From Tubulanus polymorphus (taxonomy: Eukaryota; Animalia; Nemertea): a stretch of DNA of 64,000 nt. A model generated the notes under the pieces. It had not been told where the DNA came from and did not search any database. It saw nothing but the letters and a program-made list of their open reading frames with translations. Shown here piece by piece: positions 48,237 to 63,645 of this stretch (positions are counted from its first letter, which is position 1; each line of letters begins with the position of its first letter). The position numbers were made by a program, and so were the translations under genes. The DNA lies in assembly GCF_964204645.1 (NCBI RefSeq), contig NC_134026.1, forward strand, positions 1,449,950-1,513,949, read 5' to 3'.

Positions 48237-48821
48237 ATGTTTAAAATGACGGATTTGTGTAGACGAAGTTTGCAGTTTTATTGCGGATATATATTCGTTG
48301 TATTGTCTATCGTGAACTTAGGATTCTGTATTCCGCTAGGGCTGAGTTCCCCTGTGCATACGGCTGGAATGATCGTGTCTGGTTGTCTGACAACCGTTCT
48401 TACCGCCATCGCTGGAATTAACATGATAATATTCATTACGATTCATAGAAATACGATCCGAATGAAAACGTCTGTGATGGTGATGTCCATAATTTCCGCT
48501 ACAGGAGTTATACCTACTTTAGCATATACGTGTGCCTTGATGACTTTAGTATCGGACGAAACCTCGCTAAACGCCGAAATTGATAACACTGAATCGGTTC
48601 CTTTAGATATCGGTGTGAACATTGCGCATATAACGGTACTTCTCACAATATTTATTACCTCTCTCGCCGAGGCTATTGTATTTTGCAGAAACTTTTGTGG
48701 TTTTGATTCTATAAACTCTGTTCAGCCGCTACAAGATCAGCGCGATTCTCGACGAAATCGAGCTCAACTGGGCCCGTACACAATTACACAGATGATGAGT
48801 TTGGAAGCTGAAGTGCGGTAG
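48237..48821 (+). CDS. Intronless four-TM protein, MS4A/CD20-like
   Basis: 194-aa ORF with four hydrophobic segments, VMSIISA in TM3 and a Cys pair (AIVFCRNFC) after TM4. AATAAA at ~48953. The family call is from pattern only. Confidence 0.65.
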   Translation: MFKMTDLCRRSLQFYCGYIFVVLSIVNLGFCIPLGLSSPVHTAGMIVSGCLTTVLTAIAGINMIIFITIHRNTIRMKTSVMVMSIISATGVIPTLAYTCALMTLVSDETSLNAEIDNTESVPLDIGVNIAHITVLLTIFITSLAEAIVFCRNFCGFDSINSVQPLQDQRDSRRNRAQLGPYTITQMMSLEAEVR

Positions 48822-49650: not shown

Positions 49651-52600
49651 ATGTCGTCATCTGTTCGAATCGACACCGAATTCGCAATCTCGCCCGCGTG
49701 CAACATCCACCGCGATGACATATCAGCTATCAGCCGATCCGATGTCGCGTTAGAAATGGATAGACACATGCGGAAACGGGGTATTAAGTCCGTTATTGGC
49801 GAGTATGCAAATGAAACCAATTTTCACGGCTTTAGATATATAATTCATGCGGCTTCACCTGTTGCCAGGTAAGTTTTTGAAAATATATTTTGAAAAAATG
49901 GTTTTTGGAATTCATACCAAATTTAACCTATCGTAATCATTTAACTCTGTCAAATATAGTCATCACAACGATGAAAGCAATTAGATTGGCCAAATCAGTA
50001 TGGATTTTGTCGAGTTTATCGTTTTTGCAAAGCAGAATCTGATCATAAACAGGTTAATAAAACATGAATGCGTACCTATAAGTCTGCCGTCTGTATTAGG
50101 CGGATCAAAACAGATTTCCATGAGCCATGACGGTAAAAACTTAGATTAGACCGAGAGAACGAATCTCAAATTACTCTCAATAATTCAGGTATCGCATGTT
50201 TTTTTTTCTGGTAGTTGTTGTCATTTACGTATTTGCGACACAGACGGCATCTGATCCTTCCATATAGAATCGTGAATAGTGTATATAAAATACGAAGTAA
50301 TGGAAATGATACCATCCGTTTCCTGAAACTATCATTTTATAGCTTTTTTTTCTGAAGCGGTTATCCATTGCATCTATTGTATATCTCGTTTATTTTAGAG
50401 CCCGACATATGTCACAGTATCTAGCTTCCTAACTCAAGTTCAAGTTATTGTCTACTATTTAACGCTCCGCTGAGCTAAATTAAATTGACATCTGTTGAGA
50501 CAAGCTCTAGCCAGAGTTATCCTGTACTGAGTTTCTCATCGTATTTCTGATGTCGACTGTAATTTGGGAGCTTCGAAAACGCGGCACATACGTACAAATT
50601 TCAAACAAAGGTGTTAGTTTCCCCTCTCTTTTAGCTTTTGGGATATTTACATAAGAGTTCAAAAATTCAATCGAGAAATATTCTAATCTATTTTGACTCT
50701 AAGAAATTATATAGGTTTCGACGTGGAAGTAAGAAACTACAATATGAGCAATATCAACCCGGTGAATGTTAACCCTCGCAGAAGAAGCAACAGTTACTGA
50801 CTTTCATTCCAGTCACAGTCGATGGTGCAAATCGCCAATAAGACGAACACTTACTTATATAAATCTGTATCGTTACTGATGAGAATAGCCATTACCGAGA
50901 GCAATTAACATCCCACGTGCTACATAGATTTCATTGTATAATGGTATCTTTCCATGTAGACAGTCATGTTTCCCTTTTGTCGATCGTTGCTGCAGGGAGA
51001 TGGGAGTACCTCCCTGGTTGCTCGAACGGGATCCTACCCGGGGTACTGTGTCGTAGAAAACGATTTTCACCCACGGAATAGAAATTCGCGTTGCAAAACG
51101 GTAATTAAGATGGCGATGAAAAGGATATGAATAACCCTCCAAATGACCAAAAATCATCACGATGCTTTAAATAATGAAGATAGGGCGATATATTCGATTT
51201 CGACATGCAGAAGAAGGTTTTCTATTTTCATTGCTGGAATAGGAAATCCTGTACCATCGTCGCCTAATGAAGAATACGATAGTTTGGTTTATCTTTTGAG
51301 TCTAGGGTTCCTAGGGATCAATAACCCCATTTACAATATATTAATTCCGTCAACACATCGTATATATGCAAATGAAGCAGTTCAGTTCTCAATCATCTGT
51401 ACTTTCGACCCACTACTGCTAGTTCACTAAAGACTTGAATAAATGCTCCGCAATGCTTGTAAATACTGGACATCCGTCTTGAATGTGATATAAAATCGAC
51501 ATCAGTTATATCGAATGAGACAACGGAATTCTAACAAGTTATGATTTCATATTGATGGCTTGATGAGAATATCCAACTGAAATCACTGCTATAGCTTATC
51601 GATCTAGTCAAATATATATTTGAAATATAATATTGATTAAATGAATTCCAAAAATTCGGCCAGAATCAGAAGGAAGGCGACGAGAAATGCAAAATCAATA
51701 TTATTTTCTCTAAAGGATAATTCGTTCAGTTTAGACGAGATGACGTGAATGGTTTTGATGAAGTCGCACAATGGCCGCGATTTCAACCAATTCCCTAGAG
51801 CGCAAATTAATTGGTTTTACAAAAAAAATGTAAATATATTTCGAACGACGAGGAGTATGAAGGAGGAAGTCTTTCGTGTATTGTTGTTCAATCGTATCCT
51901 TGTCGACATGGGAAATGTTGTTTTTGGCATCGTATTCCCTGCGATGAAACAATCATCATTTAGTAGCTTATAATGCCGTGTAGGAAGCTCGTGTACAATA
52001 AGAAACGTTCTGCAAATAGCATATTTGCAATGAATAATAGTTCTTCTCAGAAACATCGGTGACGATTCCTATTTTGTTTGCAGGTTGATTTGGCTGTTGT
52101 TATTTCTGTCAGCTATCGCTGCGTTTTTGTACCAAGTACAGGACAGAGTAAGAATGTATCTGAGTTGGCCTGTCAACGTCAATATCGATATCGCCAGTAA
52201 TTTTTCGCTCATCTTCCCCGCCGTGACAATCTGCAACTCTAATAACTTCAGGTGAGTTTGTCATCTCATTAATCACTGGCTGTGTCGTATTCAACGAGCG
52301 ATTGGCATTCTCGCCACCAATACAACGTTTTTTCTATTCGGTTAAAAATTATGTAACCATAAATAAATAATGTCTCATTGAACGCATTCGCAATCGCTAA
52401 AATTGCTGTAATATAAATCGTGTACACAATAGATATTTTCAAATTTTCAAGTTCAATAACTGCATCTAACAGCTTGGTACTTATTCAGTGAATTTCAATA
52501 GCCGGTATACAGCCCTGTCTCTCCTCACACGTGCTACATCACTGAACGATAATCGTGGTCACGACACACAATCAAATAAAGTCGCTTAAAATACACTAAA

Positions 52601-52711
52601 TTACCCAGTAACGCTCAATCGTTACAGCTACATTTAATAAGTCAATGTACTGAAGATTATTCACTTAAAAAAGCTCAAGCATCTATGAGAATTTCTGCTG
52701 AGTGAACATTG

Positions 52712-52742
<31 letters not shown>

Positions 52743-55700
52743 CATGATATAGAGCTTTTTACAACAGGCGATTTCTAGATCAAAATCGAATAATTCGACA
52801 GATATTCACGCATGAAATGGTGATATATTCTCTGAATTCAGTTATAAATGGTCGCGTGTATATAAAAACGCTTATCACTGTATCATTGGATGATGGGGTC
52901 ACTATCACACTGGACCCCATCAGCGCAGAATCTTAATGTCCATCATTAGTGTCATGGAAGTTTTTTGTATCGATAATCAAGTCAAATCAAATTTGTCGGT
53001 CATCACAGCTCCACTCGTCGGCGCACAGATTGGGGTACTCTAATGTTTACCGTACGCCATATGAATAAATATTAGGGAAATGTTTCTGCCTTCCAGACAT
53101 TATATACTGATAGACATATTTTCTTCTAGTTAGAGACGTTATCTTCATTTCTGTTACCCCGGAATCGGCGGACACAACAAAGGAATGATGATTAATAAAT
53201 CGGTCTATAAACGATAAAAAATAATCACCAAGATCCAGTATTTCTTGAACAATTCCTCGGAAACATTTCTGGACATAGACTAATCCGTGTTGAAGGAACA
53301 TCCATATTTGATAAAGTATAAACACTCTGCTTAGCAGTAATCTAAGCTAGATGAAGCTTAGATCGATAGAAACGAAGCAGAATTCTGTGACTACGTATAA
53401 TATATGATAGCAAACAGGATTGTCATTGTATTATCACCGAGCGCCCTGTTCATCTGGATCCAGTTCCACAGTCGTGAGTTAGAGTTAACGTGGAGTTAAA
53501 ATTAGTTCATTTTCAGTATACAATGAGTTACTCTGAGTCAGATGATAAGTGACAACTGAGGAACTGGGTCCTGTTGAATTTTATATATTTTTGATGCCGA
53601 TTTTGCCGATAATACCATGGGAATTGATGTGCACCGCATCATCAATATTTGCGCTTCATTATAACAATGAATTACAATATTGTGGATTTCGGGGTCGATT
53701 CTGTACTTGATTTTTTCATGACTCTTATTTCCTATTCAATAAATTTTCATGGTTTTTTAATAATGAGTTTCGAGTGGATGCGAAATCCTTGTCATCAAAT
53801 TGGGCTAGCCTGTTTAGACTGGTTGCCAGTCAATTCAATTCAATTGTCAATATATTGAAGTTCGAAATAGCTTCATTCATCCTTGAAATTATTATCATAT
53901 CATTCATTGTCGATGGTATCAAGCAATTTGTGTCTTCTTGTTAACTATAGATTGTCAGAAGCGATGAAGTTAGAAACGTATCAATACCTAACCGACGTCT
54001 TCCACCAAAAAGCGAATTGGGAAAAAGCGATGGAGAAACTGAATGAAATGAATTATACAGATCTGCAGATAAAACTGGCTCATCGAAAAGAACATATGAT
54101 ATTGGGGTAATTATTTACACTCATTCCTATCGGCTTATTTTGAGCATCATTTTTCGGTCACTCGTCGAGTCGTTAATGAATATACGTAAAACTGTTTATT
54201 GAACTCTTGATTGAAAAACTTTCGTGAAAAATCGTCAGTGGAGTGGAATGCTTTTTATCCCACGTGAGAATAAAACATGTGTCTGTGATCGAGTGAAGAC
54301 ACTGAGTCTATGGCTGATCTTTTATTCATCTCGTTGATTATCTATCCGCAGTTGTACGTGGAAATCGAGTCAGTGTAGTTCGGCTAATTTTACCCCGATT
54401 CTCACAGATTACGGCGTGTGTTATACTTTTAACACGAATAAAGACAACATTTTGACAGTAGAAAATACAGGTACGTCGAGACGAAAACCTAACTCAGCTT
54501 AATCCATTCCATTCATTAAACACGTTCTTGATAAGTAATTCAAGAAAGTTGTTTTCTCAATTCGCAGTACGACCTTGTGAAAGGATATATACTCTAACAC
54601 AGGCCGAGCGGTGTGCCTCATTTACAGCTTTTTTAGGAAATCAGTAATAGATATATACCCTGTAATCGGACAAACCAATACAAAAAAAACGATAGCCTGT
54701 TATCAATTTGTTAGTTCGGAATAATGATATCATTTTTTTTCCTAATGTAATCCGTAGGCCCACACATATTAATCAGAGAATATCGTTTTGGTATTTTTAG
54801 TTGGCATCATCACTTAACGATAACCTAAACGTAATGCTGCCCTAATTACCCTTCATTTTATGTATATTTGAACTGGTTTTTCACGATAAATGTCAAATTA
54901 TGCGCGTATAAATCATCTGCATCATATAATATAGGAGTAGTTATTTTTACACATCATCTGAAGTTCATTAAACTACTGAAATTTGAATTTAGGTGCGGCT
55001 TTCGGATTGGAATTATTGTTGAATATGGAACGTTATGAATACATGACCGGCGCCCACGTTTCGACGGGCATTCGGATACTGATGCATAACCATAACGAAA
55101 AACCTCGAATGGCGGACCTCGGCATATCAATTCCAGCTTCGATGAATGCTATGGTAGCGATGGAATTGACTGAGGTAAAATGTATATACTGCTCTTTGTC
55201 GGATCCGATTGCAGCACGACCGTTTTTAACGAAAGTGGTATTTGAGCCGGCAACGAATGACATGCAAAGTTGCACTTCATTCTATTGATTATAGAAGCTG
55301 TCGTTTCCATTGAACGCTTCATTTTTCAAGTCAATTCCGCGTGCTGTGATAAAACATGAAATGATAACATATGCTCGTTGATATTACCACTTTCCGGCCT
55401 AGGAAAAATATTTGAAAAATATGACATGTTTATTCATATTACAAGGTTGTGTTTCGGTTGATACAGAGGTTATTGTCTCCAAAACGCTTACGAAACCGTA
55501 TACCAAATCTTGGTTAAAACTGCCCGACAATGATCACAAATGACTCCCTATAAAATCCTGGGGCCAGTTGTTCAAGTTGGCGAGAGAGGTAACCGGTGTA
55601 TTAATACATGGTAAAAATGAAACAAGATTGAATGAAGCACATATGGCCTACAACATAAAAATATTTTTATTCGTTATTAATATATTAATTATATTATTGT

Positions 55701-58700
55701 TACAGAAAGAAAAAAAGACAAAAAGTCAAAAAGCAAAAATTTATTTATATAGATAGATTGACCTTATCCACATTGACATGAGGATAAGTTATCTAAAGAT
55801 AATTTTATCAATTATCATCATTACTTATCATCGTAATTCATCATTACCATTATCGTGAAAGGATATAATAGGTTAGGTTATAATAGGTTATGATATTTTT
55901 ATAATCAGTTACATTTCCACAGATAAAGTGTTCGTGTTATCATTAATTTCATCAGTTGTGATGCCCGGACAGTTTGACCGTACATGCATTCATGATTTAA
56001 AAAGAGGAACTCATCAAAAGCATTTCTTACCATTAAAGTTTGATCCTGAATAAAGATTCATCGATTCAGCAAAGAACGTTAGGTTAACAGATGGAATTAA
56101 TGGGTTTCACAAACTACTGATCCACTTCCATTTAATGTAAAAAAACTGCATTTGCGTTGAAGTCTATTTACACTCTGACAAACTGATCGTAAAAAAGTGA
56201 CATTCCTCGATCTCTTGGAGCTGTATATGAATTAGATTTTAAAAGATTAGAATGAGTTCTGTGTGGGATGTTTAGAACTGTCCTCTTGAGGTCTTGAATA
56301 TTATCTATACATAATACGCGGATAAAGGGATTTGAATTCGAAATCGACAGAATGAGCTTTAAAAAGAGATGAAGTCAATAATACAGTTTCCAATGGAAGC
56401 TTTAAGCAATTGTGTCCTACGATATTTTTTGAAGGTGAATGAAAGTACTACAACTAGCCGAGTCATCTAAGTTTTTCCAGTTCGTCAGATCCTTTCGTTA
56501 TTATCACCGTAAAATGGTACCGTATACGTCACAGTAGGGTCCTTCTAAGACCTACCGTAACAGCAACTGCAGCAGAAAGAAGCGATTATGATCTCCAGGA
56601 TGAAGGTTACGAAGTGCAGGACGGACACTACGACTGGAAGAGCGTAGGCTGCTCCTACACCTACTGTCCATATTACGATATTAGCAGCTGCCGACGCTGT
56701 ACACGACGCAGCGAAAGACCAGACGCAGCCAATAATAGCCAGAACCATGCAGGCGATTCTCAAACCATCACTCTTCTTTTTTCCGCACATAACTGCTAAA
56801 ACGCCTGAAACAATTGGAATGATCGCGCCCCAGATACCTGCATGGAAGAAATTCCATTGAAGAGCGGCGATGCTTGCGATATTTAGTACTAGAGCGAGTA
56901 CTTCGAGTACAAGCACTGCTATGCCCAACCCAAGAATGGCACCAGCGCGAAGTTTTCCTTCTTGTCTCACATAAGCGGGTTGTTGGACTATTACCACGTG
57001 AGGTTGTGGCTGTCCATAGTTAGCCGGTGGTGGCTGTCCATAGTTAGCCGGTGGTAGCTGTCCATAGTTAGCCGGTGGTGGCTGTCCATATCCCCCTTTT
57101 ACGTCTGCCATGTCACGCGTAAACCTATTCAAAAATATATCATCGAAGGATTAACGCCAGTTCTTGAGGTGCAAATAAAAATATCACTATTGCAAAGAAT
57201 TTGCCTTTCTGCGCAGGGGCGCGGTGGCATTTTTCGAGTACAAAAGGTACAGATTTACAAATTAGAAGGTTGAAATCTTAGTATTGGTGGCTGACTTAAT
57301 CAATTTGAGATTGTGTGGCCCGAATCAGCCCCCGTGTATAATTCATTTACCTTACTAACGTTGTATGATATTCGCTGTTCGTTGGATAACCGTCAAACAC
57401 TTCTGACGATCTCGGTTGTATATGAGAACACTTTTAGATCGAAAGGATTTATACTCTAAGGAAGATAAAGCATATTTCTGGTACTTTACAATGAATGTTT
57501 TGATTCTACTGTCCTACTGACATCTTAACTCCGAATAGAACTGGTTTAGCACTATGGTTACCAAATGGTTTCCAAAAACGTTGCGTATTGTGTAGATATT
57601 CTCCGGTTAAATTGTAGAACACTATTGCCTGGCTCAGTGCATATATAACCTTATCGATCAACGACATTTCATGACACCAGTTTTAATCGAAAGAGTTTGG
57701 TTCATTCTCCTATAGGAATATGTTCTTTCTCAGGGCGGATCGCACTTAAAAATGATTTCAATATTTTTCCGCGCACGATATCGGTTTAACTCCGATAAAT
57801 GGGATAGTTTCAGGAATGTCGTGAGCGCCGTTTGGCCATTATATACACCTGACCGAATCAGACATCAATTTCAAAAAGTGGTAACATTGCATCTGTGCAC
57901 TATTTCAACGGGATTTCCGCCGGTTAACCTTAGTCCATTATATTTGAGCAACTGGTCACTGATTGTTAATCTTCTTCAAATAATGAATATTTCCTTATCC
58001 CATCGCGTTTATCCCAGTTCTCCAAATCTGTCTCTTTTTTAACTGATGATTGTTTGAAATTTTCAGTTAAACGATTTAGCCGCGCCTCACGGAAACTGTA
58101 CGAAGTCAGACTTCCGGTCACGTGAGGCGTGTATTGTCGACTGTCGAGTTGATAATCTGGCGCATATTTGTCACTGTCGACCGATGTATGCCACTTACAA
58201 AGCGCATATTCCCCTCTGCAACGCAACATCTCATCACATTTGTGTCAAAAACGTTTTAGGTAAGTGATAAGTGGAAAGTGAAAATCAAATAGTGCAGGAA
58301 TATCCTCTCACAGATAACACCTGAGGCATTTGGCGATAACCGTTCGATAAAACTATCTCTCCCTCTCTCTCTCTCTTTTGCAGGGAGCCACGAAGGTTAT
58401 GAGGCGTGTAATGATAAATGTAAAGTGCCCTGTAAACAGTTGATGTATTCGGCTTCGCTTTCGTATACGACCACGTCTGATTTTATGGCCCGAGCTATGG
58501 CCAAAAAGTACGCCAGCGATTTCGATCTTCTGAACAGATCTCGCATCGCGACGCTTAATCTTCACCACGTCGACGATACGTTTCTGGAAGAAGACAACGC
58601 CGTGATGTCAGCCTTCTTGAATAAATATCATAATTTCTATAAGCAATTGGTGTGGCTCTACGAATCCGCCCATAAAAATGTCTCGCATATCAAAGCCATG

Positions 58701-61700
58701 CGAGACGCGTTTGAGGGAGCTGAATTGTGTCTACAGGAAAAAAAGGTATTATCGGTGCAGTTGTTTGATATATATCATGCATTCATTACATTGAACAGAC
58801 AGGTTACGTCTGGAACTAACAGACGTTCCGGATAAGATCAAATATTTATTTCCAGTACGTGATTGAACTGTTTTCGTTGTCGCTTTTTAGAGTCTTTACG
58901 AAGAGACTTTGAAGTTGCACTTGGTTCCAGGATTGGTCGAGTTAACGGTGGAGCGGCTGCGATACGAAATATCCGACTTACAGAACAGACGGTTGCCGCG
59001 ATTCAGCGACCTCGTGCAACAGAACGCAACTCACAACAACATATCTACATTCGTACAGCAACAGTTCGAAGAAGAACTGTGGTGGCTGGACCATAAAATG
59101 AGAATCATATTATCAGAATTGGAACTGACTGAAAGTACGTATTCGAACGCTTTAAACACGATTAAGTCCGAGTATGAGAATGCCGACTCCGCTCTACCGA
59201 TGTCGATTCTGCGGCCGTACGAGGACAGGTTATTGAACTCATATTCGACATTCGTCAACGATTCAAGTCGAACTATAACTGACGTAGAACATTTCCTTGA
59301 TTACATCGCGCGATTCAGGCGTTCTCCGAACGGAGTAAATCTGATCAAATTATACAACGAAACAGCAACATTGAACAGAGTTTTAACCGAATTCACCGAG
59401 GCCACGGAAGGCCTGGAATCGATCTCTAACGTAATAAAAGAATGTTTTCGCCATGAAATTTCCAGCATTCGGTCGACCGAACAAAACATAATCGGTTCGG
59501 CACAATTCCACGCGAGATTGCTGCATATCTACGCTAGCGAGTTCGTCGAATCGCAGCCTCACTTGTTGGAGTTCGGCGATTTCATCGACCGCATAAAAAA
59601 TCTAACCGGTGGATTTCAGATACAATACCTCGAGGATAAGTTACAAAACTCCGATCTGTGGAACCACACAATATCTCACACTAAGAACATGATGGTCACG
59701 TTAGATAAAATGAAAGCCGAAGCGAAATCGACGATTCTACACTCCGAAGAAGTATTGCTCAGTTTGGAAACGTCTGCCTCCGAGTTCAACGGTTCGAACG
59801 GTTGCGGCCAGTTTTCGACGATCATCGAGTTGTTGAGAACTTACAAGGACAGAATAAATAACCAACCGAATTATATCGATTCGGTTCAAAAAGACTATGA
59901 ACAAATGCTAACAAGGCATACGAATCTAGACACCCATTTACAACAGTTGAAAGATTCGTACGCCATTAGTTATAAGTTCATAAAGTAAGTATAATGTATC
60001 CTTGAAGAACTACAAACTGTTTAACTTTCCATCCAACGCCTCATAAATTTTCATTTTCCTAATGAATAATGGGAGAAAAACCATCGACCAAGAATTCTGT
60101 TGGCAACAAGGATTTACCCTCTGGGCCACAACGTGTCTGCACGGAAAGGAGAACTGCTATCATAATTTCTTAAATGCATTTTCTCTTCCCATAGTTCTTT
60201 CGAGTACAATATCTTACCAGATAAAGAATAGAAAAATTAATTACTCCCACGAGAGATTTCCTCAATGCAACGTTATTCAAATATCTATCAAATATTTATA
60301 GTTATTCAAATATTTTACAACAAATGATGAAAAAAAAAGAAAATATTCTTAATCTACATTTTCAGGAGGAATGTTCTCACTGTTCGTGTTTTCTATCAGA
60401 AGCTCAATTTTCAGCGAATCACAAAAGCCGAAGGGTATCAATGGTTTTCTTTGATATGTAAGTCATAAATTTGGGCTTATTGTTTGTTTTTCTATTTCGC
60501 CTTTACCTGACGCGTTATAGGATCATAATTCGACGCTACTCGCTCGATTAACTCAGTAGCTAATAGTTATATTCAAACTCCTACCGGGACATGTCATTAA
60601 TAGCATCGGAAATAGTTTCAGTTCGATGATAAACTACCATTTAGGGAGTTGAATAGTCCTACGTAGAGGTATTTACGGTCGTTGACATTTGGTCATAAAG
60701 ATATATAGCTTAGTATATATAGTTATATTCGAAGAGCGGAAAGTGCTACGACTGTTGGGTTATCATCGCATCCCAGTGGTGGTATTAAAGACAGGAATAA
60801 TCCTGCGATAATATATGTATTAAGTCATGCCCAGCGCTTCGTCGACGGAGAGATGATAATTTCGTCGTGCGGGGTCGATGAAATTTGAATATAGCGTCAA
60901 ATATTCATAAAACAAAAATTCTTCGTTCGCGTTTGGATTTTCATGAAAATGAAAGCTTTCGGTATACTGTCGTGCCCCAGGGGATCATACAGTTACCGAC
61001 TTAATTGCCTTTTCCACTAGCATTTCTCCTAATAAAAAACCGCACTTAACCAGCCGTGTATGGAATACGTTACGAATTCTGGAAGTTGTTCTAACGTATA
61101 AAACAAATCAATTGATAATCATTTCCCATTGCCATTTGCTCGTCTGTAAATTGTTTACCGGTTTCATTGCAACACGTCTTATTTTGGTTCACGCCTTTCA
61201 ATGTATATGATATATGCAATGAACGGTGTGAACCAAATTATCAAAAGAAATAATATACAGTAGACTTCGCTCAAGAAAGGATCTATTGGGACCATCAAAA
61301 TGTTCCGGGTTCAATGTATTTGATATGTAGTATCACAAAAGATTTTTCAAAAGACATCCATGTTGAACGGTTCTGACTGACGTAATGAGAGGTGAACGGA
61401 TTTCTATTATCTATACATGTATATGGCGAGTTGATCAGACTTGAGGGGCATTTTCAATCGTGTGGCATTTTCACTCGTGGGGCATTTTCACTCGTGGGGC
61501 ATTAACACTCGTGGGGCATTAACACTCGTGGGGCATTAAAACTCGTGGGGCATTAAAACTCGTGGGGCATTAACACTCGTGGGGCATTTTCACTCGTGGG
61601 GCATTTTCACTCGTGGGGCATTAACACTCGTGTGTTAACGAACATCTGTACTTCATTCTCTGGGATATCGGTATCATTTGACTTATCCACAGATTTGGTT

Positions 61701-61986
61701 CGTCCAAACACTGGTTAGAAAAATATCTATCCCAATACGATTTTCAGTATTTTTTTCTGTATTCTTTTCAGGTGATATAGGTGGTTCGTTCGGTCTGTAT
61801 CTCGGTGCATCTTTGCTCACGTTAGCGGAACTGTTATATTTCATCGGAAAACATATAAAACCGGGCAATTCTTCACAGGAAAAAGTGAAATCGTTCAGCA
61901 TGAAACAACAACGAGCGAAAATGAACGGTAGCGACAAACAAAATGTGATCACTCACAGCGATAAGATTGCCTGGGCGTCTGACTAG
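49651..61986 (+). CDS. DEG/ENaC (ASIC-like) channel subunit, ~930-950 aa, with a very large extracellular insert
   Basis: 10 phase-consistent exons: 49651-49868, 52084-52251, 53951-54106, 54352-54470, 54993-55174, 58067-58259, 58384-58745 (or -58802), 58891-59984, 60366-60457, 61772-61986. Motifs: TNFHG, IWLLLF (TM1), FPAVTICNSNNFR, TDYGVCYTFN, GLELLLN, Cys-rich thumb, and CDIGGSFGLYLGASLLTLAE (TM2 with the GAS filter). Confidence 0.93.
52717..52742. repeat. (TA)n microsatellite
   Basis: Direct reading. Confidence 0.9.
53456..53571. mobile_element. Short palindromic MITE-like element
   Basis: GGATCCAGTTCCACAGTCGTGA ... TGACAACTGAGGAACTGGGTCC form imperfect ~22-bp terminal inverted repeats. 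The core ATTAGTTCATTTTC recurs at ~12303, ~28639 and ~62313. Confidence 0.6.
56545..57111 (-). CDS. MS4A/CD20-like four-TM protein nested antisense in DEG/ENaC intron 5
   Basis: 188 aa from ATG 57111, with an AG acceptor just upstream and a donor at ~57350 implying a 5' UTR exon. Motifs: GIWGAIIPIVSGVLAV..GKKKSDGLRIACMVLAII and C-terminal ASFCCSCC. The N-terminus is Pro/Gln/Tyr-rich. Confidence 0.82.
   Translation of the reverse strand: MADVKGGYGQPPPANYGQLPPANYGQPPPANYGQPQPHVVIVQQPAYVRQEGKLRAGAILGLGIAVLVLEVLALVLNIASIAALQWNFFHAGIWGAIIPIVSGVLAVMCGKKKSDGLRIACMVLAIIGCVWSFAASCTASAAANIVIWTVGVGAAYALPVVVSVLHFVTFILEIIIASFCCSCCYGRS
57006..57091 (-). repeat. 24-bp coding tandem repeat, (YGQPPPAN) x ~3.5
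   Basis: TGTCCATAGTTAGCCGGTGGTGGC is repeated on the + strand, in frame within the nested 4-TM gene. Confidence 0.9.
61443..61638. repeat. 17-bp minisatellite, 11 copies
   Basis: Unit GTGGGGCATT(TTC/AAC/AAA)ACTC is arranged head-to-tail without spacers. The array ends in the hairpin TTAACAC-TCGT-GTGTTAA. Confidence 0.95.
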
Positions 61987-62971
61987 TCGAATATCAATGA
62001 TTCCGGCCGATTTAAACAGACTAAAATGAAATTCTGAAATTCGACCTCGTAAACGCGTGTATAGTTGTTTCATGATGTTAGATAGTTATTTGTATTCGTG
62101 TGTGAGTGTGTAAAGCAATCGGTACTGGAAAATCATTCGCTGAAAAATTCAAATTGCATCTGCGTCACTCTGGACGAGGCGACATTCTCTTTCATGTAAT
62201 GATTTCCGTTGGATAAGTGGAATCGTCGGATAGTTAAACATAACCGTATCGTAGAAATTGCATGATCATGACCTATCTTCAACTGTGAGTTTAATCAGAC
62301 TACTGAATCGAAATTAGTTCATTTTCGAGTTGATTTTAACACTCAACTTAATGATGACTCCTTATGTTTCAGTTCGTCTCATATTCAGAGCACTTTGATA
62401 TAAAATAAAACGGCGCAGTTGTCGATATCGCTATTAGAGTAAAAATAAATGTACATACAAATATAAAGCGTTTCTGTTCTATCTAGGTTCGTATCGTAGT
62501 TTGACTATGAGCTTACACTCCGGAAGTACCCATTCGGCCATTCTAAACGACAGGTCCCGTCAGGTAACAGGTTGCTTCGACTGCGTGGTTTGGACGCTGT
62601 AAAACAGTTCCTAGATAAATATGGTTGACGACGTTGGTTTTTTTAACGTATTAGAGAAACCGCAGCAAGAAATGATAGATTACAACATGTCCTGGTGGAA
62701 ATTTGACCTGATCGGAAAGATGACCCGCTTAAGACCAAACTGATAAGTCTAATTCAGACAAAACGTTACGTTATTTTAGGTAGGTTTTAACATTTATCAA
62801 AGTTATGTTGTCTTTAACTGGCTAGATAACAGAGCATTTCCATCGATCGATAAAAAAGAACACGGTAAGCAAGCGAAGATAAGCGATAAGACATCGGTCA
62901 CGTGACTATGCTTATCACTAGCTCGCTCGAAGAACAAGGCGTCTTCACACGGATGAAGAGTCGGTTTAAAA

Positions 62972-63645
62972 ATGCCTTCCCCGAGTTCCTTGCGTGGAAA
63001 GTTGTTGTACATCGTGACTGATGTTGTTTGCTTCGTCATCGGTAAGTGTGGTTTGTGTCTATCTTGACCAGAGAAATAGATACCGTGAACAGAAGGCCGT
63101 GTTCACAGGGATGACTCTTCAAATAATTCATTCAGAAATGGACGGGAAAACATTTATGGCATATCATCTACAAACTTCACGAGAAAAAAAAGTGAAAGTG
63201 TATATTCGATTTTGTATCATCGTAGCAACATCGAAGACGATATAGCAATTCGTGTATTCTTGAAAATAACTGACATGGTACTTTCTCTATTTGAAGATAC
63301 CGACGCGTAATCTAGCCCGCTATATATCTCACCGGGGTTTATACATATAAGTTCGGATATATTTCAAATACATATGAAGTTTTTAATCTAGATGATATAA
63401 GACTCTTATCTCGGCGGCCAATATTCGATATCTTTCATACGACGACGTTACATGAATATGAAAAATATCTATCATTGTATATTGCTTTTTCAGCGGCGTT
63501 ACCGAATATTTTGATGAAAGAGTACATGCCACCTTATCATCGTGGGTTTTACTGCGATGACGAATCGTTGAAACACCCTTACAAAGGATCGACAGTTCCT
63601 TGGACCCTGTGTATTTGCGTTGGGGTTCTCTTACCCGCTGTAGTG
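62972..63645 (+). CDS. Phospholipid phosphatase (PAP2/PLPP/wunen family), first two coding exons; continues beyond the window
   Basis: Exon 62972-63041 (MPSPSSLRGKLLYIVTDVVCFVI) joins in phase to 63494-63645 (ALPNILMKEYMPPYHRGFYCDDESLKHPYKGSTVPW). PYHRGFYCDDES...PYK is the family's N-terminal signature. Confidence 0.88.

Follow-up and report, generated by a model that had tools for sequence, protein, structure and literature searches.

The gating of DEG/ENaC channels has diversified mostly in the finger and the thumb of the ectodomain, and the solved structures of the family that we compared have a small knuckle. In ENaC it lies at the top of the ectodomain, where it touches the finger of the neighbouring subunit (PMC6197857; papers given here by PMC number are cited from excerpts), and N-glycans on the knuckle and palm of alpha-ENaC serve as tethers for shear force (PMC6955349). 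The best solved relatives of the channel described here are ASIC1/ASIC2 and BASIC (ASIC5) (PDB 6l6p, 6ave, 9mky); FaNaC and WaNaC (PDB 7yvb, 8on7) and the brachiopod DiaaNaC (PMC11750451) are spiralian DEG/ENaC channels with non-proton gating. Our channel is encoded on the forward strand at 49651-61983 of a 64,000-nucleotide window (the whole stretch analysed, from contig NC_134026.1 of the nemertean Tubulanus polymorphus; all coordinates are positions in it), and it is an otherwise intact DEG/ENaC subunit with a long insert at the knuckle. The gene is most likely a divergent member of a widespread, undescribed long-knuckle subfamily of clade-A-like DEG/ENaC channels.

Rebuilt from the window sequence, with an inferred start codon in exon 1, the gene has ten exons that are all flanked by GT-AG, join in phase, and give 932 residues with no stop. 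The insert spans 459 residues, from the end of the post-thumb strand (residue 373) to the start of the pre-TM2 strand (residue 833; TM1 and TM2 are the two transmembrane helices); of these, exon 7 contributes 93, exon 8 contributes 364, and the junction the rest. An initial annotation, made from the letters of the window, had proposed such an insert in place of the knuckle, which has a few tens of residues in ASIC-type channels; its presence holds, and its start moves from 58470 to 58467. The composition given at that time was reproduced: little proline (1.5%) and glycine (2.4%), nine N-glycosylation sequons, and three cysteines (461, 651, 771). The one uninterrupted exon of 1094 nt with correct phases is also there, flanked by GT-AG, open, and in phase, the other nine exons measuring 92-362 nt. 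A 145-nt intron splits the insert, which has no hydrophobic segment and a single furin-type site (residues 607-610). Shuffling gives 4.7 sequons on average, and 67 of 2000 shuffles reach the nine observed. No significant match to a known domain was found in Pfam or PDB, and exon 8 alone finds no relative but its own protein among 5035 longer candidates and 1.84 billion representatives.

A search with the channel core gave 8 matches among 867 candidates, the best other protein being a 943-residue chiton protein (E 4.9e-55) and the next one scoring 6.8e-23. In the chiton protein 481 residues lie at the knuckle in the same place, and TM2 is intact. Used in turn as the query, it retrieved 30 proteins among 7996 scored candidates: 26 from named molluscs of four classes, one from Capitella, and three unnamed. 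All 30 have an insert at this site, of 480-514 residues (480-494 in 29 of them), and the TM2 motif is present in 27; a 365-codon open frame where every relative has an insert of like size is more than chance. The initial annotation, which pictured a stalk, had missed that the long knuckle marks a subfamily conserved across molluscs and annelids (30/30 relatives). In one cluster, which includes a cuttlefish protein, nine of the twelve members are proteins of 917-929 residues on contigs of 3.1-3.8 kb, and these contigs are likely transcripts. The long-knuckle channels of chiton (XP_064610984.1), Aplysia (XP_005111008.2), Capitella (ELT93614.1), and scallop (OWF41244.1) share with the nemertean one the site of the insert, its predicted helical character, and its richness in sequons. 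The core of the nemertean channel is 32-38% identical to 23 mollusc rows and 25% identical to Capitella, whereas its insert is shorter (459 residues against 480-514), split by an intron, and too diverged for a match by hidden Markov model (HMM). In a tree of the insert-free core under LG+G4 (25 rows, four of them outgroup, 7 of 32 rows having been dropped), the nemertean channel groups with the long-knuckle rows (support 94/98), and a quick tree of all 32 rows gives the same grouping with a Shimodaira-Hasegawa-like approximate likelihood ratio test (SH-aLRT) value of 85.

Gene structure adds to this picture. Read-assembly contigs provide seven open frames, each of which stops at residue 865 of the chiton protein, and four of them start matching at 366-367; these limits correspond to the intron before exon 7 and the intron after exon 8 in the nemertean gene, and the flanking introns therefore match. 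The mollusc insert seems to fill one exon of ~1.5 kb between these introns, which may be older than the insert. Some members are already present in a published data set (PMC10507113): the Aplysia one is labelled 'uncharacterized', and the supplement holds Platynereis entries of 956 and 1017 residues with the same core, whose first 400 letters are visible and whose inserts are deduced from length. The trimmed alignment of that study keeps just a short stretch at the knuckle for a Platynereis entry whose core is of this type. The Saccoglossus proteins P0003 and P0009 have a 209-residue insert at the same knuckle site, with no match to the mollusc insert HMM. A further Platynereis entry, of 635 residues and similar in its core, may likewise be intermediate.

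Outside the insert, two transmembrane helices enclose a Cys-rich ectodomain of the PF00858 type, as in other DEG/ENaC channels. Its 14 ectodomain cysteines fit the seven conserved disulfides of the family (PMC6197857), and the motifs H59-G60, D863 (D0'), and G873-A874-S875 are intact, being located on exons 1, 9, and 10, which are joined by phase and not by reads. These traits (two transmembrane helices, HG, 14 cysteines, D0', GAS) are common to our channel and to ASIC/BASIC, and the likeness extends to the fold (Z 21.1, root-mean-square deviation (rmsd) 3.6, 258 residues aligned). Unlike ASIC/BASIC, the nemertean channel has its 459-residue knuckle, a Cys just before D0', a shorter finger (~20 residues below ASIC1/2), and no post-TM1 His. 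In the alignment to ASIC1/2 the latter residue (H73 of rat ASIC1a; PMC9949801) corresponds to Val103, and the column has V, T, or I in all 23 family rows covering it. The channel departs in this trait from bona fide ASICs, and the missing His makes ASIC-type proton gating unlikely; the intact pore motifs, short finger, and absent His had all been noted from the outset. Similarity rankings agree on the class. The NCBI model of the gene, XP_074644052.1 (P0001; Tubulanus polymorphus, 735 residues), scores 2.5e-30 with ASIC2, 1.3e-13 with Aplysia FaNaC, and 0.29 with Malacoceros FaNaC1, and the family profile scores 1.7e-98 with ASIC, 1.3e-79 with BASIC, 4.8e-56 with FaNaC (2.1e-30 with Malacoceros FaNaC1), and 1.7e-51 with ENaC. 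The FaNaCs thus score far below the ASICs for both queries, and clade-B FaNaCs are not the closest channels by this ranking, which is one of similarity and not a tree; the sequences are pointing to a clade-A-like DEG/ENaC. DiaaNaC was compared by text and not by sequence: the excerpts of PMC11750451 name no knuckle and no protein insert.

Read assemblies bear on the splicing of the insert. None of the five read runs is recorded as RNA; one of them, X2, was treated as RNA because its contigs skip GT-AG introns, namely 52251-53951, 54106-54352, and 58745-58891. One spliced X2 contig joins exon 8 to exon 7 of the channel at donor 58745, and an overlapping one covers 59030-59899 of exon 8. The initial annotation had left a choice between donors 58745 and 58802 for the junction to 58891; the spliced contig settles it for 58745 and rules out 58802. 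Skipping of exon 8 in frame is ruled out as well, since exon 7 ends in phase 0 and exon 9 starts in phase 2. The X2 contigs reach neither exon 9 nor the junctions 49868-52084, 59984-60366, and 60457-61772, and run X5 yields no contig; on these points the two runs give no evidence either way.

The fold of the insert was predicted from the family. AlphaFold2, run on the 30-sequence alignment, gives a chiton-type insert that is all helix, including helices of 79 and 92 residues, with a predicted local distance difference test score (pLDDT) of 86 and a predicted template modelling score (pTM) of 0.73; the model of the nemertean insert is also all helix (71- and 72-residue helices, pLDDT ~37-66). 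With the nine sequons, this agrees with the proposal of a helical, glycosylated insert. VIA-align matches the mollusc insert to four-helix bundles at ~100-305, the far one, and at ~45-100 plus 305-480, the near one. Since the insert must start from the palm and come back to it, and the template matches fall in these ranges, we infer that within one subunit the mollusc insert forms an out-and-back rod of two four-helix bundles stacked on two long antiparallel helices, a layout read from match ranges and not from viewed coordinates. The rod would be ~12-14 nm long, given the length of the two helices (79 and 92 residues) and a rise of 1.5 A per residue. The predicted far bundle of the nemertean protein (residues ~436-631; 58653-59385, forward strand, across intron 7) matches the same bundle templates as the mollusc one. 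A one-way coiled-coil stalk, as first imagined, is not supported by this model or by the periods of the two long mollusc helices, 3.63 and 3.60 rather than the heptad 3.5. Heptad-like runs had also been described in the nemertean insert: its periodicity does peak near 3.5, and the signal is weak (power 3.5-4.7 in six of six predicted helices). Matches to known structures are of a general kind. The best VIA matches are designed bundles (Z 13.7, rmsd 3.4, 197 aligned), and Foldseek with the mollusc insert gives nothing at E 0.001 or better (best E 0.034). Pfam offers coiled-coil families below threshold, which were rejected, and a lead to the dynein tail DHC_N1 (Atlas: 0.92, 148-154 of 256 features common, recognition 1297) was dismissed as a generic helix signal. 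The sensor domains of the bacterial chemoreceptors McpZ (8f7n; Z 10.2, rmsd 12.3, 303 aligned) and Tsr (2d4u; Z 9.4, rmsd 3.9, 167 aligned) are alike in architecture alone, with four-helix bundles stacked on long shared helices; at 7-10% identity and Z 9-10 the matches are not significant, and we claim no homology.

Conservation within the family is concentrated at one place of the predicted rod. Among the 45 columns conserved in at least 85% of 29 inserts, 23 fall at 105-215, in the far bundle. The 29 inserts have 269 sequons where 120 are expected, and one sequon is invariant (29/29). We propose, with a probability of roughly 0.4, that the insert is a rod that binds a partner, in the matrix or on a facing cell, and passes pull or binding to the pore. 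Given the position of the knuckle at the top of the trimer, the rod would point away from the membrane, and its conserved far bundle and glycans would bind the extracellular partner. The insert starts and ends on two palm strands that descend towards TM2, and a tilt or pull of the rod could shift the palm and thereby set the gate open or closed; all steps from fold to gating are our inference. The functional precedent is alpha-ENaC, whose knuckle glycans link the channel to the matrix for shear sensing (PMC6955349), although it is a clade-B channel with one sequon on a small knuckle, whereas the nemertean channel has a predicted folded domain of 460 residues with nine sequons. A bolder and unlikely version would have three rods of 12-14 nm crown the trimer and reach ~20 nm from the membrane, their conserved far bundles binding the matrix or a protein on the facing cell and force or contact opening the pore, in what would be an ancient branch of the ASIC superfamily within the lophotrochozoans.

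Several observations weigh against a nemertean member of this family that bears such a rod. XP_074644052.1 is not among the 30 proteins retrieved with the chiton protein, and it ends before TM2. The trees are without ASIC, BASIC, and HyNaC rows, their outgroup is thin, and the nemertean channel sits on a long branch. Any domain outside the cell would be expected to be rich in glycans, and the enrichment is no proof of tethering. The low-confidence nemertean fold model was built with the mollusc alignment as input and hence is not independent. Against the family insert HMM the nemertean insert scores -4.8 bits, below shuffles (top 3-4); in a global profile alignment of the trimmed insert, z is 4.1 relative to plain shuffles and 1.7-2.7 relative to controls that keep the helical pattern (0-10 of 83-150 as high); and conserved far-bundle residues are partly kept, 23 of 84 strongly conserved columns being identical. 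The absence of TM2 from the NCBI model could mean that the gene is truly truncated, with translation continuing past the exon 8 donor into a stop, no TM2, and hence no channel. XP_074644052.1 terminates exactly at that stop (59986-59988), but it also starts after TM1, which leaves it without both helices and without a secretion signal. Exon 8 is followed by a donor that fits the consensus perfectly (GTAAGT), and the forward strand of intron 8 is free of poly(A) hexamers. Exons 9-10 form an open, in-phase frame with up to 53% identity to relatives, and the mollusc open frames break at the same position. From these points we judge XP_074644052.1 to be probably a truncated annotation of the full channel gene, and true truncation very improbable; the transcript of the next gene overlaps exon 10 and may have misled the annotation. 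The lack of an HMM match and the weak z against pattern-keeping controls could instead mean that the nemertean insert arose independently, by separate growth of a permissive knuckle, an origin compatible with any mechanism. The different 209-residue insert of the acorn-worm protein at this site, which tells that growth is tolerated there, and the extra intron within the nemertean insert lean the same way. Yet the core groups with the long-knuckle clade and the inserts are similar in length. Anchored in place, the final 30-70 residues of the insert also fit the family profile (z 3.8-4.5; 0 of 744-824 control windows), although this stretch includes ancestral knuckle residues and the first residues of the insert give z 0.5-1.5, and a degenerate form of the most conserved motif of the family aligns in order. 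We find an independent origin unlikely and a common origin of the nemertean and mollusc-annelid inserts probable, sequence homology of the inserts themselves being suggestive.

For the function, two other roles compete with the partner-binding rod. The insert might sense a soluble ligand, a peptide or small molecule bound to the far bundle gating the pore by a piston or twist of the long helices, as in the unrelated chemoreceptors. Conserved charged and aromatic residues do cluster in the far bundle (K111, R115, R117, E122, R123, R157, F196, Y198, R204 in the numbering of P0011), the finger, which senses ligands in other DEG/ENaC channels, is short here, and chemoreceptor sensor domains (McpZ 8f7n, Tsr 2d4u) recur among the fold matches. 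Their Z values, however, are within the range common for helical bundles, Foldseek finds nothing at E 0.001, no ligand is known, and the conserved arginines and aromatics are perhaps structural; we consider this sensor unlikely. The insert might otherwise have no acute role in gating and serve assembly, subunit choice, trafficking, or spacing, or act as a cap released by proteases like the gating release of inhibition by proteolysis (GRIP) tracts of ENaC. Contacts between knuckle and finger have been proposed to aid assembly and stability of ENaC (PMC6197857), and in 20 proteins the insert shows a faster pace of change than the core, with identities to the chiton protein of 29% and 48%, respectively. 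The furin-type site of the nemertean insert (607-610) would suit a cap, but no more than 6 of 29 family inserts have one, which rules out a conserved protease site. The near-constant length (480-494 residues in 29/30), the invariant sequon, and the conserved patch exceed the needs of a plain spacer, and we regard a role of this kind as rather doubtful. The partner-binding rod is the role that we favour.

The remaining features of the locus were mapped along the forward strand. Exon 1 (49651-49868) encodes the N-terminus and the pre-TM1 HG motif (residues 1-73); its frame continues into exon 2, tblastn matches it to 3 of the 30 family proteins (best E 4e-5), and it is no part of the NCBI model. 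TM1, the post-TM1 segment without the ASIC His, and the first palm strands are on exon 2 (52084-52251; Pfam ASC 1e-13), which contigs join to exon 3 (53951-54106), the short finger, itself joined by spliced contigs to exons 2 and 4. Palm and beta-ball follow on exon 4 (54352-54470), identified by tblastn of family proteins and by its contig junction with exon 3, and beta-ball and palm on exon 5 (54993-55174; Pfam ASC 1.2e-6), the 3' end of which is matched by a 20-letter loose contig end at 58065. Exon 6 (58067-58259) encodes the Cys-rich thumb, as seen from the reconstruction, the ASIC alignment, and tblastn. The end of the thumb, the post-thumb strand, and the first 93 residues of the insert are on exon 7 (58384-58745; Pfam ASC 8e-4 on the first 66 residues), and the 364 helical residues that follow are on exon 8 (58891-59984), of which X2 contigs cover 58891-59899. 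The in-phase exon 9 (60366-60457) has the pre-TM2 strands and the start of TM2, and exon 10 (61772-61983; Pfam ASC 4e-5) has TM2 with D0', the GAS filter, the C-terminal tail, and the stop; together they match 28 of 30 family proteins in tblastn (best E 7e-18, up to 53% identity). Family proteins find this channel gene alone in the 64-kb window, with no second copy.

Two introns contain repeats. In intron 2, a high-copy repeat lies at 53450-53900, where the depth of a contig of run X1 rises to ~19,000 from 36 around it, and an X1 contig is without 53278-53684; in intron 9, a tandem array of an 18-base unit is read from the sequence at 61455-61630. Intron 5 contains an intronless gene on the reverse strand (56545-57111), covered by X2 contig 55980-57035. 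Its product of 188 residues has Pro/Gly/Tyr repeats at the N-terminus, a tail rich in Cys, and four hydrophobic segments; it has no Pfam match at E 1 and may be a four-pass protein of the MS4A/CD20 type. Just upstream of the channel, a 150-residue open frame with two hydrophobic segments lies at 48369-48821 (forward strand). Downstream, X2 contig 61576-62284 (forward strand) begins in intron 9 and spans the last coding exon of the channel, and its loose end matches 62488 onward over a GT-AG gap; the contig probably represents the 5' end of the following gene, which would overlap the channel on the same strand. The exons of this next gene at 62972 and 63496 resemble a phospholipid phosphatase, and Pfam gave no match for 49 residues of it.

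Our literature search, which most subscription papers lay beyond, found no description of the knuckle insert, and six accessions used as search terms led to no paper. The long knuckle is unmentioned in the excerpts of PMC10507113, PMC9234716, PMC9949801, and PMC11750451, and the supplements of PMC9234716 (one file) and PMC9949801 (eight files) hold nothing on it. What emerges is a predicted folded domain that equals the remainder of the channel in size, set in the knuckle, unmatched in Pfam and PDB, and of near-constant length across chitons, bivalves, gastropods, cephalopods, and one annelid. Even if it were only a spacer or an aid to assembly, it would represent an undescribed domain family that the trimming of alignments has hidden from published trees. 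If the insert gates the pore, an old channel would have gained a new module for sensing, and the insert would give a handle on the outside tethering of DEG/ENaC channels. If the force-gating rod is true, this would be a DEG/ENaC channel with the tether in the same chain, and the tether model could be tested on one domain. The members found in Aplysia, cephalopods, and Platynereis make these ideas testable in standard models.

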